A DNA stretch of 9,690 bases from a virus (lineage: Duplodnaviria; Heunggongvirae; Uroviricota; Caudoviricetes). The notes below the pieces were generated by a model. The model was not told where the DNA came from and searched no databases. It saw nothing but the letters and a program-made list of their open reading frames with translations. Below are positions 6,403 through 9,690 of this stretch, piece by piece. Positions within the stretch are counted from its first letter, which is position 1. Each line of letters starts with the position of its first letter. The position numbers and the translations under genes were made by a program. Location of the stretch: IMG/VR virus record IMGVR_UViG_2551306491_000022; one strand, written 5' to 3'.

Positions 6403-6485
6403 GGTGTAAGACACAATGTAAAATAACGGTGTCTTACACGTCAACCCTTCAAAATATTTTTTTTTCGTGTATATTGTCTTACACC
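6403..6485 (+). promoter_or_regulatory. Operator array and promoter of RHH module 1: three copies of GTGT-N3-ACAC palindrome
   Basis: GGTGTAAGACAC (6403-6414, inverted orientation), GGTGTCTTACACG (6428-6440), TTGTCTTACACC (6474-6485). Candidate -35 TTCAAA (6448-6453) and -10 TATATT (6470-6475) with 16-nt spacer. The third operator overlaps the -10 and start site. Confidence 0.5.
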
Positions 6486-6505
6486 AAAAACATGAGGGGT
6501 TAAAC

Positions 6506-6685
6506 ATGGCAACGGGGCCAAAGAATGCAAAATCACAATCTGTAACTGCACGTATTGCCCATGAAATTATTGAAGGCATGGAGAACGTGAAAGAAGAAGG
6601 TGAAAGCACGGGGCAGTTTATAAACGCAGCCATGCGCGGCGAAATCAAACGCCGCCAGCGTCGCAAGGCCAAAGAATCAGAATAA
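6506..6685 (+). CDS. Ribbon-helix-helix (CopG/Arc/MetJ-like) DNA-binding protein, 59 aa; putative repressor of module 1
   Basis: ATG at 6506 with GAGGGG 6 nt upstream (track start 6467 is GTG and would include the operator). Sequence KSQSVTARIAHEIIEGMENVKEEGESTGQFINAAMRGEI fits the RHH pattern of beta-strand, helix, G-x-S/T turn, helix, with a basic tail. Confidence 0.55.
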   Translation: MATGPKNAKSQSVTARIAHEIIEGMENVKEEGESTGQFINAAMRGEIKRRQRRKAKESE

Positions 6686-6690
6686 TCACT

Positions 6691-6734
6691 ATCAGCGCCG
6701 TGGTGTGAGGTACTACGGCGCATTGCTTTACAGG
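6691..6734 (+). repeat. Conserved 44-bp element with internal hairpin (copy 1), between the RHH gene and the downstream small gene
   Basis: ATCAGCGCCGTGGTGTGAGGTACTACGGCGCATTGCTTTACAGG is 43/44 identical to 7369-7412. Stem GCGCCGT(6695-6701) / ACGGCGC(6715-6721) with a 13-nt loop; the single difference is in the loop. Confidence 0.6.
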
Positions 6735-6742
6735 GCAGTATC

Positions 6743-6970
6743 ATGACCAACAACACACTATCACCAATACAAGACACGCAGACGCAAGAAGATGAAATCA
6801 TTCGGCAAAGGCAGTTAGAAACCTGTGCTCGCCTTGAAGCCGAACTGGCTAATCCTCTGAATATCCAACTAATACCGATAGAAATGAAACCTGGACTATT
6901 CGCGTTGGAGGCATTTTTAGCAAGCTGCCCACGGCGGCTAAAGTCCCGTAAGAATCGCCCGCCAGGATGA
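6743..6970 (+). CDS. Hypothetical small protein (75 aa), partner gene of RHH module 1
   Basis: ATG at 6743 with AGGG 7 nt upstream. N-terminus MTNNTLSPIQDTQTQ resembles MTNKESTDTPSQKT of the gene at 7421. TGA at 6968-6970. Confidence 0.45.
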   Translation: MTNNTLSPIQDTQTQEDEIIRQRQLETCARLEAELANPLNIQLIPIEMKPGLFALEAFLASCPRRLKSRKNRPPG

Positions 6971-7089
6971 GTACACAAAACCGAACTATGAAACGGATTA
7001 TTCCGTTTCCGGGGCGTTTGTGTGTGTATAAAGAGTAAGCTATGCTCTTTTATAGCCATAATCGTTACCTCAATTAATGGTTTGGTTAG

Positions 7090-7131
7090 ACGCCCCATAT
7101 GTGAGCCACCACTGCGGGGCGTTGTTTTTTG
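7090..7131 (+). terminator. Intrinsic terminator ending RHH module 1
   Basis: CGCCCC(7091-7096)...GGGGCG(7116-7121) stem followed by TTGTTTTTTG (7122-7131). Confidence 0.6.
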
Positions 7132-7147
7132 TATAACGGTAAGTACA

Positions 7148-7191
7148 ATGGTAATTACCATGTAACTATAGTAATTAAGGGTAATTACCAT
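7148..7191 (+). promoter_or_regulatory. Operator pair of RHH module 2: palindrome GGTAATTACC x2
   Basis: ATGGTAATTACCAT (7148-7161) is a perfect 14-bp palindrome. The second copy GGTAATTACC (7180-7189) sits between the Shine-Dalgarno and the ATG of the RHH gene. Centres are 30 bp apart. Candidate -10 TATAGT (7167-7172) lies between the two sites. Confidence 0.5.
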
Positions 7192-7363
7192 GTCAACACC
7201 ATTGGAAAAGCGATCGCCTCCATACCAAATGCGGCTACCAGAAGAATTCAGAGCACAACTTGAAGAGGCAGCGAAAGCAGACGGTGACACTTCTTTAGCC
7301 ACCTGGATCAAGCGAGTACTCCGAAAAGAATTACAGCAACGCGGTATTGAACCCAAAGGATAA
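7190..7363 (+). CDS. Arc-like ribbon-helix-helix DNA-binding protein, 57 aa (below the length cutoff of the ORF track); putative repressor of module 2
   Basis: ATG 7190 to TAA 7361-7363, Shine-Dalgarno AAGGG. Translation MSTPLEKRSPPYQMRLPEEFRAQLEEAAKADGDTSLATWIKRVLRKELQQRGIEPKG has the Arc/Mnt-type RHH pattern. The operator palindrome overlaps its start. Confidence 0.55.
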   Translation: MSTPLEKRSPPYQMRLPEEFRAQLEEAAKADGDTSLATWIKRVLRKELQQRGIEPKG

Positions 7364-7368
7364 AAAAC

Positions 7369-7412
7369 ATCAGCGCCGTGGCGTGAGGTACTACGGCGCA
7401 TTGCTTTACAGG
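7369..7412 (+). repeat. Conserved 44-bp element with internal hairpin (copy 2)
   Basis: ATCAGCGCCGTGGCGTGAGGTACTACGGCGCATTGCTTTACAGG, 43/44 identical to 6691-6734, at the same position relative to the RHH stop and the downstream ATG. Confidence 0.6.
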
Positions 7413-7420
7413 TACACACA

Positions 7421-7624
7421 ATGACCAATAAAGAATCAACCGATACACCATCGCAAAAAACGAACAGAGAGCACGAAAATATGGCGCTCGAGCATGAATC
7501 AGAAAGATTCGCACCATGCGCTTTTGTCCTTGATGAGTTTCTAAAAAAATATTCACGTTCTGAACGGATGAAAATGGCAGCACAATACGGCCCCAACAAG
7601 AAAGATAATTGCCCACCAGCCTGA
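7421..7624 (+). CDS. Hypothetical small protein (67 aa), partner gene of RHH module 2
   Basis: ATG at 7421 with AGGT 7 nt upstream; TGA at 7622-7624. N-terminal similarity to the 6743 gene product. Confidence 0.45.
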   Translation: MTNKESTDTPSQKTNREHENMALEHESERFAPCAFVLDEFLKKYSRSERMKMAAQYGPNKKDNCPPA

Positions 7625-7691
7625 TCGCGGTTATCATGCCCAAGCTTATGATTGTTGACACATACGGCGCAGCGGGTTAATTGTTCAGAAA

Positions 7692-7720
7692 GGTGGCTCC
7701 ATTTCGGGGCCGCTTTTTTT
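7692..7720 (+). terminator. Intrinsic terminator between the convergent plus-strand module 2 and alpA
   Basis: GGTGGCTCC(7692-7700), loop ATTTC, GGGGCCGC(7706-7713), then TTTTTTT(7714-7720). Stem includes G-U pairs. An A-run on the other side could allow weak bidirectional action. Confidence 0.6.
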
Positions 7721-7745
7721 ATGTTCATCATTTGCCCTATATATG

Positions 7746-7952
7746 TTAAGCGGTCGTTCCGCGCGCTTCTTGTTCTCGTTCTTTCATCCATGCGATTACG
7801 TCTTCCTCATACCATCCGCGACGGCGCAAACCGACACGAAAACCCTGCGGGAATTCTCCGGCGTTGATCATGCTTTGCAGCGTGCTGTCTGCCTTAATGT
7901 GGATAAGTTTTTTTACTTCCTGGCGAAAGATGACTTTTTTGATTGCTTCCAT
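7746..7952 (-). CDS. alpA: AlpA-family transcriptional regulator (phage excisionase-like DNA-binding protein)
   Basis: 68-aa ORF, ATG with GAGGT upstream. FRQEVKKLIHIKADSTLQSMINAGEFPQGFRVGLRRRGWYEEDVIAWMKER fits the AlpA pattern (R.EV....G.S.ST.Y.....G.FP.P.K.G.R...W...EV..W). Position next to a P4-type integrase is typical. Confidence 0.8.
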   Translation of the reverse strand: MEAIKKVIFRQEVKKLIHIKADSTLQSMINAGEFPQGFRVGLRRRGWYEEDVIAWMKEREQEARGTTA

Positions 7953-7970
7953 CGTGATTTACCTCATTAA

Positions 7971-8059
7971 TCCGGTGTATTCCGGTGAGAAATACGGTAA
8001 ATCATCGGATGCAGGGAAAAACAGTACTCACCGTTTTTAAACGGTATACACCGTTTTTT
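7971..8059. promoter_or_regulatory. Repeat cluster in the alpA upstream region
   Basis: Direct repeat TCCGGTG (7971-7977, 7981-7987); 16-bp palindrome ACCGTTTTTAAACGGT (8030-8045); a further CACCGTTTTTT (8049-8059). All lie within about 110 bp upstream of the alpA start. Confidence 0.35.
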
Positions 8060-8085
8060 ATATTGATGATTTGAAAGGGATTTAT

Positions 8086-8109
8086 AAAAAAAGCGGCATT
8101 TCTGCCGCT
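8086..8109 (-). terminator. Intrinsic terminator downstream of the 8120-8350 ORF
   Basis: Plus strand AAAAAAA(8086-8092) GCGGCA TTTC TGCCGC(8103-8108). On the minus strand this is a stem-loop followed by seven U, 10 nt after the ORF stop. Confidence 0.55.
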
Positions 8110-8119
8110 TTCAGGATTG

Positions 8120-8350
8120 TTACCGCCATTTTTTTGGCCTGCCTCCGGTCTTCATGGATGCCGGACGTACAACCTTATCAATACTTACAGCCAGATTTCT
8201 GGAAGCCCCACGGGATACCAGGAAATCTACTACCTGTTTTTTTGATGGGGCCGTCGTTCTGTCCTCCGGATCGTAGGTTGACCAAAATTCATGCTGAACC
8301 ATCAGGGCCAGTTGCAGCCCGTCGCAATTGCATCTGAAATTTGTTTGCAT
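8120..8350 (-). CDS. Hypothetical small protein (76 aa from the ATG; track ORF starts at a TTG at 8371)
   Basis: ORF between int and alpA, followed by a minus-strand terminator and preceded by a perfect TATAAT (minus strand, plus coordinates 8397-8402). No clear Shine-Dalgarno at the ATG. An antisense ORF (8071-8337, +) overlaps, so the coding strand is uncertain. Confidence 0.3.
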   Translation of the reverse strand: MQTNFRCNCDGLQLALMVQHEFWSTYDPEDRTTAPSKKQVVDFLVSRGASRNLAVSIDKVVRPASMKTGGRPKKWR

Positions 8351-8448
8351 CTTAACAGTTTCATTTTTCAAGGCCTCGTCGTTAAATGTGATGCAATTAT
8401 ACGACGGTTTTAAATGGTTTTCGTAGTTTTTACTGGTTTTCTGTACAG

Positions 8449-9690
8449 CTAAACGGCTCGGATACCCCTTTTACCACTGGCGAGGGTTACGCCCGTCGCC
8501 GCAGCCTCGACAAATTCGCCCCACCAGCGCATAAGCACGATGCGTTTTTCTATGTAGTTGCTCCGGTTGTATGCCCGTCTGACTTCGTTGGTGTCGACGT
8601 GGGCAAGTGCGGCCTCTATTACGTCCGGCTCAAAGCCTTCTTCGTTCGCTGCTGTGCTGAATATGGCGCGTAATCCATGAGACACCAGCACGCCAGCGAA
8701 TCCCATGCGTCGTAATGCTGCGTTAGCGGTCTGGCTGTTCATCGGCTGCTGTGGGTCTTTCAGACTCGGGAAAACATAATCGCGGTGGTGGCTGATTGGT
8801 TTCATAGCCTCCAGCACTGCCATAGCCTGGTCACAAAGCGGGATAACGTGGTCGCGGCGCATCTTCATGCGTCCGGCGGGTATGGTCCAGCGTTGCGCTT
8901 CCATGTCGATTTCTTCCCAGCGTGCCGACGATGCTTCAACGGGACGGGTTACGGTCAGTAACTGCCATTCAATCAGTAATCTGGTCTGCCGTTCTGTTGC
9001 CGATACTGATAAAGCCTGCATAAGCTCCGGCAGCTGTTCGGGGCGGATTGTTGGCATATGTTTTTTTACAGGGGAGGGGAACGCCTTACGCACATTCATA
9101 GCCGGATTGGCATCAATCATCCCACTATTGGCGGCGTAATCCATTACCTCATTTATACGCTGTAAAACTCGCTTGAGCGTTTCCAGGTTGCCACGTTCCT
9201 TGATGGGGGTAAGCACCTCAACGAACCTGCGAGCGGTCAGGGTGTCTATTGGCGTGTTGCCGATGAACGGGAATACATATTTTTCCAGCGATCGCCAGAT
9301 GTCTTTAATCGTATTGGGGGCCAGATTCTGGCTGATTTTCACCTGGTACCATGCTGTTGCCACATTTTCGAACGTGTTCCCTTGTCTTCGGGCCTCTGTC
9401 TCTCTTTTTTGCCTCTCGTGGTCCTGCGGGTCAGTTCCGGCACGAATTAACGCCCTGTACTCGCTACGGCGTTTTCTGGCATCAGCCAGGGAAACATCAT
9501 CAAGCGATCCAAAACTCAGCAATATTCTTTTTTTGTCCGATGGTCGGTAGTAGGAAAATCTCCAGAGTTTTGATCCGGACGGTTTGATCAGGAGAAAAAG
9601 CCCTCCGCCGTCCTGTAGGGTGTATTCCTTTTCTGCTGGTCTGGCTGCTTTGATCTGTACTGTGGTTAATGGGGGTGTTTTTCTCGCCAT
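8449..9690 (-). CDS. int: Tyrosine site-specific integrase, P4 family
   Basis: 413-aa ORF whose ATG is the last three bases of the window. N-terminus MARKTPPLTTVQIKAARPAEKEYTLQDGGGLFLLIKPSGSKLWRFSYY is the conserved P4-type integrase N-terminal signature. C-terminal catalytic region has HGLRAIFST...RAYNRSNY (His/Arg and Tyr motifs). Confidence 0.9.
   Translation of the reverse strand: MARKTPPLTTVQIKAARPAEKEYTLQDGGGLFLLIKPSGSKLWRFSYYRPSDKKRILLSFGSLDDVSLADARKRRSEYRALIRAGTDPQDHERQKRETEARRQGNTFENVATAWYQVKISQNLAPNTIKDIWRSLEKYVFPFIGNTPIDTLTARRFVEVLTPIKERGNLETLKRVLQRINEVMDYAANSGMIDANPAMNVRKAFPSPVKKHMPTIRPEQLPELMQALSVSATERQTRLLIEWQLLTVTRPVEASSARWEEIDMEAQRWTIPAGRMKMRRDHVIPLCDQAMAVLEAMKPISHHRDYVFPSLKDPQQPMNSQTANAALRRMGFAGVLVSHGLRAIFSTAANEEGFEPDVIEAALAHVDTNEVRRAYNRSNYIEKRIVLMRWWGEFVEAAATGVTLASGKRGIRAV

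Follow-up and report, generated by a model that had tools for sequence, protein, structure and literature searches.

The present analysis concerns the DNA in front of alpA, a gene that serves Gram-negative phage-inducible islands as their master switch, in a stretch of 9,690 nucleotides (IMG/VR record IMGVR_UViG_2551306491_000022; hereafter the window) that is part of an Escherichia coli chromosomal island. In the window alpA lies on the minus strand (7746..7952) and encodes a 68-residue winged-helix protein of the AlpA/Vis/excisionase kind, as judged by Pfam, PHROG and a comparison with P4 Vis. Upstream of it, at 8090..8111 on the same strand, lies the intrinsic terminator of the preceding gene, a perfect 9-bp stem (AAAGCGGCA/TGCCGCTTT) with a 4-nt loop followed by T7, which bounds the alpA control region on the upstream side; in a second clade of related islands (clade 2) another hairpin with a T-run stands in its place. 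The control region (7955-8059) consists of three overlapping layers on the alpA strand, namely a palindrome, a set of direct repeats and a hairpin. Read in the sense of alpA, the terminator (8111-8090) is followed by ...ATAAAAAACGGT-GTAT-ACCGTTT-AA-AAACGGT-GAGT-ACTGTTTTT, by 15 variable nucleotides and then by TTTACCGTATTT-CT-CACCGGAAT-A-CACCGGATT-AAT-GAGG-N9-ATG.

Judged by its gene content and position, the element is an E. coli phage-inducible chromosomal island (PICI) at tRNA-Pro. It has the integrase gene (int), alpA, replication module, capsid genes and specific attachment (att) site of Gram-negative PICIs of the alpA type, and its gene order in the window is that of EcCICFT073, an experimentally studied PICI that we located in CFT073. 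A copy of 7600-8500 that is 100% identical lies beside tRNA-Pro and yejM in strain 2014C-4587, in a locus of 21 kb referred to as L001; because L001 matches the window at 99.8% identity over 6679-9690, the att region beyond the window was read from it.

Palindrome, direct repeats and hairpin

An earlier note on this DNA had drawn attention to a 16-bp palindrome with a third, partial copy beside it and to a repeated heptamer, all within about 110 bp of alpA. The palindrome ACCGTTTTTAAACGGT is indeed present at 8030-8045, with 7-nt arms (ACCGTTT/AAACGGT) that are perfectly complementary around an asymmetric central TT, the third copy ACCGTTTTT is present at 8050-8058, and the far end of the cluster is 107 bp from the alpA start. 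The three half-sites recognised at the time are real, but a fourth, AAACAGT at 8019-8025, had been overlooked. Together they form a 38-bp quasi-palindrome (8019..8056) of four ACYGTTT half-sites, which emerged from a search for inverted and direct repeats with shuffled sequences as the control; from distal to proximal on the alpA strand these are H1 (8056-8050), H2 (8045-8039), H3 (8036-8030) and H4 (8025-8019), with core-to-core spacings of 9, 11 and 9 bp, or approximately one site per helical turn. A pair of 18-bp inverted repeats, AAACNGT-N4-ACNGTTT, lying 20 bp apart is an equally valid reading of the element; this arrangement is observed twice against 0.00 expected in shuffled sequence, and the central 7-2-7 palindrome ACCGTTT-TT-AAACGGT (H3 and H2, 8030..8045) is likewise observed once against 0.00. 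The word ACCGTTT alone is weak evidence, as its four occurrences in the window (1.69 expected) were reached by 19 of 200 shuffles. The quasi-palindrome pattern has no further occurrence in the window or in L001. In clade 2 the central palindrome is a perfect 16-mer, ACCGTTTTAAAACGGT, and the 38-bp element is a near-perfect palindrome. Neither a LexA box (CTGT-N8-ACAG) nor an Ogr/delta dyad (TGT-N12-ACA) was seen by eye in the region.

Similar sequences occur elsewhere. Environmental contigs with ACCGTTTTAAAACGGT-N4-ACTGTTTT were set aside as an unrelated context. An unrelated environmental family, comprising contig L103 (9690-9830) and about 30 metagenome contigs (e.g. L072, L085, L098 and L105), carries TACCGTTTTATACCGTTTTAAAACGGTACATACTGTTTTGG followed by a conserved segment of approximately 100 nt near a tRNA gene; a Pfam search with the L103 open reading frames (ORFs) returned an ECF sigma factor, a protein kinase and three ORFs without a meaningful match, with no integrase or AlpA family among them. 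Within the window, a perfect 7-4-7 palindrome resembling the alpA half-sites (AAACGGATTATTCCGTTT, two mismatches to AAACGGT-N4-ACCGTTT) is found at 6991-7008, between two of the gene cassettes described below.

The heptamer TCCGGTG is present twice, at 7971-7977 and 7981-7987, as the earlier note had it; the two copies belong to a 10-nt direct repeat TAWTCCGGTG (7968-7977 and 7978-7987), and a third repeat, ACCGTATT (7998-7991, minus strand), had escaped notice. On the alpA strand the three boxes are a, ACCGTATT (7991..7998), which overlaps a candidate -10 and where TTTACCGTATTT does not vary among the nine BLAST loci; b, CACCGGAAT (7979..7987), invariant in 32 sequence variants save for one T/C change and with a motif that recurs in the att arm; and c, CACCGGATT (7969..7977), which lies 10 bp from b, ends 4 nt before the Shine-Dalgarno sequence and reads RCCGGATT across clades. 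The boxes run head to tail from starts at 7998, 7986 and 7976, so that they are spaced by 12 and 10 bp, about one helical turn, as in the arrays bound by recombination directionality factors (RDFs). Here too the single word says little: TCCGGTG occurs four times in the window against 1.08 expected, a count reached by 4 of 200 shuffles, and the single copies of CACCGGA or ACCGTTAT at other places in the window (5679, 6101, 6423, 7133) do not exceed chance when the cluster is left out of the count.

The arrangement of the motif in L001 is more telling. CACCGRA occurs there 17 times against 5.1 expected, and the pair CACCGRA-N3-CACCGRA, with its exact 10-bp spacing, occurs four times in the 21 kb against 0.02 expected; one pair stands before alpA and the other three fall in the interval from the tRNA-Pro attachment core to int, and every one is on the int/alpA strand. 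The att-arm arrays comprise three units that start 8 nt past the 3' end of tRNA-Pro and two units about 75 bp further in, and nine further loci that reach the att arm have the same arrays at the same distances. The motif stands in the att arm close to the core, where an RDF is expected to bind. No box of the TT type (ACCGTT) was found in the att arms. Both arms also carry tandem 12-bp units of AGTTATACG in direct and inverted copies, and because these resemble the annotated tandem 12-bp repeats of the P4 attP arms they are the better candidates for the arm sites of the integrase. Among other islands, L073 (SKEW01001852.1) is a recombinant that combines an alpA 5' region of the clade-2 type with CACCGGA att arrays of the clade-1 type, and in L042 (IMGVR_UViG_2703718821_000013) the 10-bp unit CACCGGAATA is present three times instead of twice, a natural variant in copy number.

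The third layer, a hairpin that encloses the direct repeats, is absent from the earlier note. Its 5' arm UGAUUUACC (7996..8004, minus strand) pairs with the 3' arm GGUAAAUCA (7955..7963), as indicated by an inverted repeat, an RNA fold and a consensus helix, and the 3' arm covers the last two G of the Shine-Dalgarno sequence and the spacer to the ATG; GAGG itself, as read from the sequence, is at 7962..7965, 9 nt before the ATG at 7952-7950. The RNA that spans 8008 to 7948 has a fold of -20.8 kcal/mol (z -3.9; none of 200 shuffles as good), and that of clade 2 one of -19.0 kcal/mol (z -3.3). In the consensus fold the 9-bp helix UGAUUUACC/GGUAAAUCA is paired in 98.5% of cells, with one compensatory pair between the clades (AU in 8 sequences, UA in 6); the support that covariation gives to the pairing thus comes from one evolutionary event and is suggestive. 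An upstream segment complementary to the Shine-Dalgarno sequence and its spacer, with conserved pairing, is the layout of a fold-back mask of the ribosome-binding site (RBS). Davis, Simons and Kleckner reportedly described in 1985 such fold-back inhibition of read-through transcripts in IS10 and IS50. As in those elements, a segment upstream is complementary to the RBS, so that transcripts from outside would stay untranslated; unlike there, the hairpin loop here also carries predicted protein-binding repeats. The fold would suit a true alpA start within the hairpin as well.

Conservation of the control region

Among 5,426 complete E. coli genomes, 374 carry the region, and they fall into identity classes of about 99%, 90-93% and 77-79%. 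Similarity to the most distant of these, which belongs to the range of 60-80% identity, breaks off at 8067-8072, shortly beyond the cluster. The 32 distinct variants were gathered from nine genome loci, 49 viral contigs and those of 74 metagenome pattern hits that carry island sequence. Between the window and clade 2, the block 7953-8001 (RBS, direct repeats and TTTACCGTATTT) agrees at 46 of 49 positions and the four half-sites at 27 of 28, compared with 5 of 8 in the two 4-nt spacers, 8 of 15 in the nucleotides between the blocks, 7 of 11 in the distal 11 nt and 155 of 207 (75%) in the alpA coding sequence. The blocks are thus 94-96% identical, against 53-64% for flanks and spacers and 75% for the coding sequence. 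H2, H3 and H4 are almost invariant in the 32 variants, while H1 varies (CGGT, CAGT, CGAT, CGTT, CTGT). Conserved half-sites with freely changing spacers are the usual signature of protein-binding sites. TTACCGTATTT was the anchor with which the 32 variants were collected, and for this reason its invariance is independent evidence only in the nine BLAST loci.

Among wider relatives, neither a protein-based scan nor a pattern scan of one genome per species found anything, and AlpA homologues of at least 75% identity are confined to E. coli and Shigella. A BLAST search of the cluster against phage records gave no significant match, and Rfam returned nothing relevant in the window. In one genome locus (L005; NZ_CP044312, RM13745, 3001-3136) no alpA is annotated and similarity stops about 20 nt into the gene, with the upstream control region intact.

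Candidate promoters

A promoter scan of the region found none on the minus strand. In a position-weight scan, a rough one built from consensus frequencies, every minus-strand candidate scored at most 5 bits with a poor -35, and this want of a good sigma-70 promoter fits a dependence on an activator. We infer the promoter position from two hexamers, with candidate starts near 7987 and 8014. One of them, TACCGT (7994..7999, minus strand), is the sole hexamer that all sequences of the two clades retain, although it scores approximately 2-3 bits and has a poor -35. Transcription would start near 7987, which would put the centres of the inverted repeats at about -40.5 and -60.5 and that of the central palindrome at -50.5, with the direct repeats extending from -11 to +19. 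Because the inverted repeats then centre near -41 and -61, this start points to a palindrome that serves activation and to direct repeats that limit it. The alternative -10, TACTGT (8021..8026, minus strand; WACTGT in general and AACTGT in many variants), also persists across clades; with a start near 8014 the palindrome would cover -10 and -35 and the direct repeats would lie at +17 to +46, which suggests that the palindrome is the operator of a repressor. A plus-strand promoter, TTTAAA-17-TATATT at 8036-8064, was rejected as it is not conserved in clade 2.

A model for the control of alpA

The explanation we favour, to which we give about an even chance of being right, is that the cluster is the control region of alpA, combining AlpA boxes in direct repeat that are shared with the att arm, an upstream operator of four half-sites and a hairpin that masks the RBS. 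The three direct repeats (ACCGTATT, CACCGGAAT and CACCGGATT) just 5' of the RBS would be the boxes through which AlpA regulates its own gene, and AlpA would be a small winged-helix RDF of the Vis/Xis/Cox kind that serves both excision and the control of alpA; one protein is proposed for the two tasks because the same motif stands in phased arrays next to the att core. The 38-bp palindrome would be the upstream operator, bound either by AlpA in mixed orientation or by a second, dimeric factor that brings in the signal of the helper phage. The hairpin would keep read-through transcripts from int translationally silent, whereas transcripts that start inside it would be translated.

AlpA matches the PHROG "excisionase and transcriptional regulator" with an E value of 1.4e-7, shares 33% identity with P4 Vis across 49 residues and reaches an E value of 0.07 against the PDB chain 8c3t of the "AlpA family"; RefSeq names its relatives "AlpA family" or "helix-turn-helix transcriptional regulator". 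The evidence that the element encodes its own cognate small winged-helix RDF is thus modest; proteins of the AlpA family are known as excision factors (PMC8844411). The antiterminator model of Pseudomonas aeruginosa AlpA was rejected. That protein needs an N-terminal segment that binds RNA polymerase, helices up to H8, DNA contacts by R128-H142, a GGGACG element between -35 and -10 and a downstream terminator (PMC9371919); these domains cannot fit into 68 residues, and the island has no GGGACG element and no convincing minus-strand terminator after alpA.

Experiments on related islands imply that the promoter has two inputs. In EcCICFT073, a reporter of the alpA promoter is switched on when a plasmid supplies AlpA, and in both EcCICFT073 and EcCIMP1 a helper phage induces that promoter, in EcCIMP1 even without alpA (PMC6092414, PMC11773190). 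Since AlpA activates and the helper phage induces in its absence, a second factor has to be considered for the palindrome, as a helper input that is independent of AlpA needs a site of its own in the promoter region. The literature that we found on PICI alpA promoters maps no site for either input. The product of a 76-residue ORF between int and alpA is a conceivable but unsupported binder of the palindrome.

The earlier note had read the repeats as sites that control alpA, perhaps autoregulatory sites of AlpA itself. This idea is partly supported, by the conservation of the repeats above that of spacers and coding sequence, by the recurrence of the motif in the att arrays and by the published response of related alpA promoters to AlpA and, separately, to the helper phage, though the anatomy on which it was built was incomplete. 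Less favourable is the outcome for the ribbon-helix-helix (RHH) proteins, which the note had also entertained as regulators: they are unlikely to bind the palindrome, because their cassettes differ between islands in which the palindrome is invariant and each RHH gene has operator-like repeats of its own (GTGTAAGACAC, GGTAATTACC).

Several observations weigh against the explanation we favour. The match of AlpA to Pfam Phage_AlpA (E value 0.003) is below the family cut-off, so that the family assignment is weak at the sequence level. With either promoter the direct repeats would lie over -11 to +19 or further downstream, a position that predicts repression, yet the published autoregulation by AlpA is positive. 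At positions 5-6 the half-sites have TT where the att-type boxes have GA. In clade 2 the att arm has repeats of the ATCGGA/ATCGGT type next to the core and only two copies of CCGGATT, although the alpA repeats are the same; the islands concerned are L002, L004 and L005. Because the alleles of Int and AlpA change together, the change of motif between islands cannot tell which of the two proteins binds. Masking of the RBS lacks statistical support in EcCICFT073 and in CP4-57 of K-12, where the layout can be seen by eye and the fold is no better than that of shuffled sequences. Conservation, finally, rests on two or three closely related E. coli clades. What the sequences themselves establish is the layout of the elements, how they are conserved and that the att arm has the same motif; the binding assignments and the sign of regulation are inferred.

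Alternative explanations

An alternative that deserves serious attention, though we consider it clearly less probable, does away with a second factor. All seven sites with an ACCG core would be AlpA boxes (YACYGKWWT), four in alternating and three in direct orientation, on which AlpA would form a filament like that of Cox or Apl; the distal boxes would activate, the proximal ones would limit, and the helper signal would act elsewhere or through AlpA. All the sites do share an ACCG/ACTG core followed by an A/T-rich flank, with ACCGTATT intermediate between the two types; the spacings in the palindrome are those of a phased array, Cox boxes occur in both orientations 10-11 bp apart and RDF specificity is relaxed (PMC3936717, PMC7498355), and AlpA alone is sufficient to activate the alpA promoter of EcCICFT073. 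It is harder to reconcile with the absence of ACCGTT boxes from the att arms, with the gap of 27 bp between H4 and the first direct repeat, which is out of helical phase, with an AlpA-independent induction that needs another site in the promoter region, and with a dyad symmetry so nearly perfect, in clade 2 over the whole 38 bp, that it looks more like the operator of a dimer or tetramer. A more specific proposal, possible but somewhat doubtful, is that the palindrome is a helper-responsive element where a dimeric or winged-helix phage protein (e.g. the excision factor of the helper or a Cro-like protein) would dock to switch on alpA, in the way that P2 Cox turns on the P4 promoter PLL, while the direct repeats and the hairpin would silence read-through until the signal arrives.

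Other explanations dispense with AlpA as the partner of the repeats or with proteins altogether. It is unlikely, in our view, that the region works through nucleic acid structure only, with the palindrome as a weak bidirectional terminator or insulator, or as an attenuator with alternative 1:2, 2:3 and 3:4 hairpins, and with CCGG cores that are kept for pairing in the RBS-masking hairpin and not for a sequence-specific protein. The 40-nt palindrome RNA does fold at -16.1 kcal/mol (z -3.4), a scan flags terminator-like 7-bp stems on both of its strands, A-runs and T-runs flank it, and the consensus fold holds a CCGG/CCGG apical stem in addition to the 9-bp RBS helix. In locus L009 (NZ_CP043217) the first spacer upstream of alpA, ACCC, is the exact complement of the second, GGGT, and H3 has one change; the pattern looks like the correction of a quasi-palindrome by template switching, which would imply that the hairpin forms in vivo. 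However, no covariation was found in the 40-nt hairpin, its spacers are mostly unpaired and the changes in H1 uncompensated, the stems have three G-C pairs in seven, a strong terminator already stands 40 nt upstream, and RNA pairing leaves the phased att-arm arrays of the same motif unexplained. Rather improbable is the idea that the CACCGGA repeats are arm-type sites of the integrase, so that alpA expression would follow the integrase level through Int bound close to the start of the gene. The repeats do occur in the att arm, Int has an arm-binding domain, and since the alleles covary either protein could be the partner; but the CACCGRA arrays lie on one arm only, whereas the P4-like AGTTATACG lies on both, head-to-tail units in 10-bp phase right beside the core are the pattern of an RDF (PMC7498355), and in EcCICFT073 AlpA on its own acts on the alpA promoter. 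That the repeats are functionless leftovers of slippage or recombination, as the expanded 10-bp unit of L042 might suggest, is very improbable given the identity of the blocks relative to flanks and coding sequence and the absence of these arrangements from shuffled sequence.

Neighbouring genes and other islands

Upstream of the control region lie two more minus-strand genes. The P4-type integrase gene (int, 8449-9690) encodes an Arm-DNA-bind_3 arm-binding domain (E value 2.4e-23). Between int and alpA is a small conserved ORF of 76 residues (8123..8350; 83 residues from a TTG start), which is annotated in RefSeq, has a basic GGRPKKWR tail and is 67-96% identical between clades; family searches gave no match, and its predicted three-helix model (pLDDT 70) has no fold match. 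The other minus-strand genes of the window are a DUF4222 gene, an AAA_25 replication protein, an SSB-like gene and a protease-capsid fusion. An island of the same type (L003; NZ_CP148493, 5170-5330) lies not at tRNA-Pro but beside rplQ and a truncated DnaJ-like gene, at a site that resembles the core (CACGTGCCGACCAAA).

The plus-strand region between alpA and the replication operon is made of duplicated cassettes (6270-6390 and 7018-7136; 6690-6735 and 7370-7413), each with the word GTTTGTGTGTGTAYAA, a CCCCG...CGGGG stem-loop, a small RHH gene (YlcI/YnfO or Arc-like), a stem-loop TCAGCGCCGTGG...CTACGGCGC and a second small gene. Operator-like repeats precede the two RHH genes (6404-6486 and 7150-7192), with three copies of GTGTAAGACAC/GTCTTACAC and two of GGTAATTACCATG. 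Repeats of the first set lie on either side of a fairly good minus-strand promoter, TTGACG-18-TACATT, that faces an Icd-like gene (6116-6313), and from this layout the main operon may be repressed by the divergently encoded YlcI/YnfO protein. A 496-residue ORF on the minus strand (6301-7791) runs antisense to four plus-strand ORFs (6467-6685, 6743-6970, 7190-7363 and 7421-7624), all in the same plus-strand frame, and is probably spurious, though unusually long.

Comparison with known systems

The control region offers two separable, conserved candidate elements with exact coordinates for the two inputs of the alpA promoter. Because the same boxes adjoin the attachment core, AlpA is predicted to be both the excision factor and the regulator of its own gene. 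If the palindrome is truly helper-responsive, it would open a concrete way to study how helpers are sensed by Gram-negative PICIs, which the literature that we found leaves unexplained.

The order of genes, with int, alpA and opposite small genes followed by the Icd-like gene, DUF4222 and the primase operon, is as in EcCICFT073 and EcCIMP1. The AlpA of EcCICFT073 is 27% identical to that of the window, and the island shows the same layout of repeats with a different motif: ACAAV instead of CACCGGA repeats, with a 10-bp period (0.00 expected), stand at the att core, immediately past int and directly ahead of the alpA RBS, where they read GACACAAT-CC-GACACAAC. Its int-alpA spacer differs, being 365 bp without an ORF and without the ACYGTTT palindrome. 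The ends of EcCICFT073 in CFT073 (L011, 17841-17875 and 29060-29130) share the core (GTGCAACGATCGGTGTAGTTAATGGTGTAGT) and have similar ACAAV arrays on the same side, and its left flank may be the remnant of an earlier element. In K-12, alpA of CP4-57 has AACCAA twice, 10 bp apart, in the same place.

RDFs bind head-to-tail repeats one helical turn apart at att sites with relaxed specificity, and in phages 186 and P2 similar repeats are also found at a promoter (PMC7498355). Like the sites of 186 Apl and P2 Cox, the CACCGRA boxes with their 10-bp period are direct repeats about one turn apart at both the att site and a regulatory region. Apl and Cox act between face-to-face lytic and lysogenic promoters and repress both, whereas the array described here stands directly before the gene of the factor itself and the published autoregulation by AlpA is positive.

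There are several likenesses to P4. Both elements are satellites with a P4-type integrase, and in both the gene of a small winged-helix protein for excision follows a promoter that is weak and that needs an activator, in the island by prediction; the RBS regions of alpA in the window and of vis are alike (ATTAATGAGGTA and ATTAACGAGGTA). The vis leader of P4 has CCGGA/ATCCGGTG words, its attP arm between core and int has TCCG-type repeats with a period of 10-11 bp, and tandem 12-bp repeats lie on both att arms as they do here, those of P4 being annotated in its record as attP arm repeats. Vis is said to regulate the promoter PLL (Polo et al. 1996). The upstream regions do not align, and the island is of the PICI type (int-alpA, DUF4222, AAA_25 and capsid genes). 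Upstream of PLL, which precedes vis, P4 has phased boxes through which Cox, the excision factor of the helper, activates that promoter (PMC3936717). The activating elements of P4 are three cox boxes and a TGT-N12-ACA dyad, in place of which the island has the ACYGTTT palindrome with its four half-sites. Conceptually the scheme is a known one, and by these analogies the alpA region is best described as a further case of that seen in P4 Vis/PLL, P2 Cox and 186 Apl.

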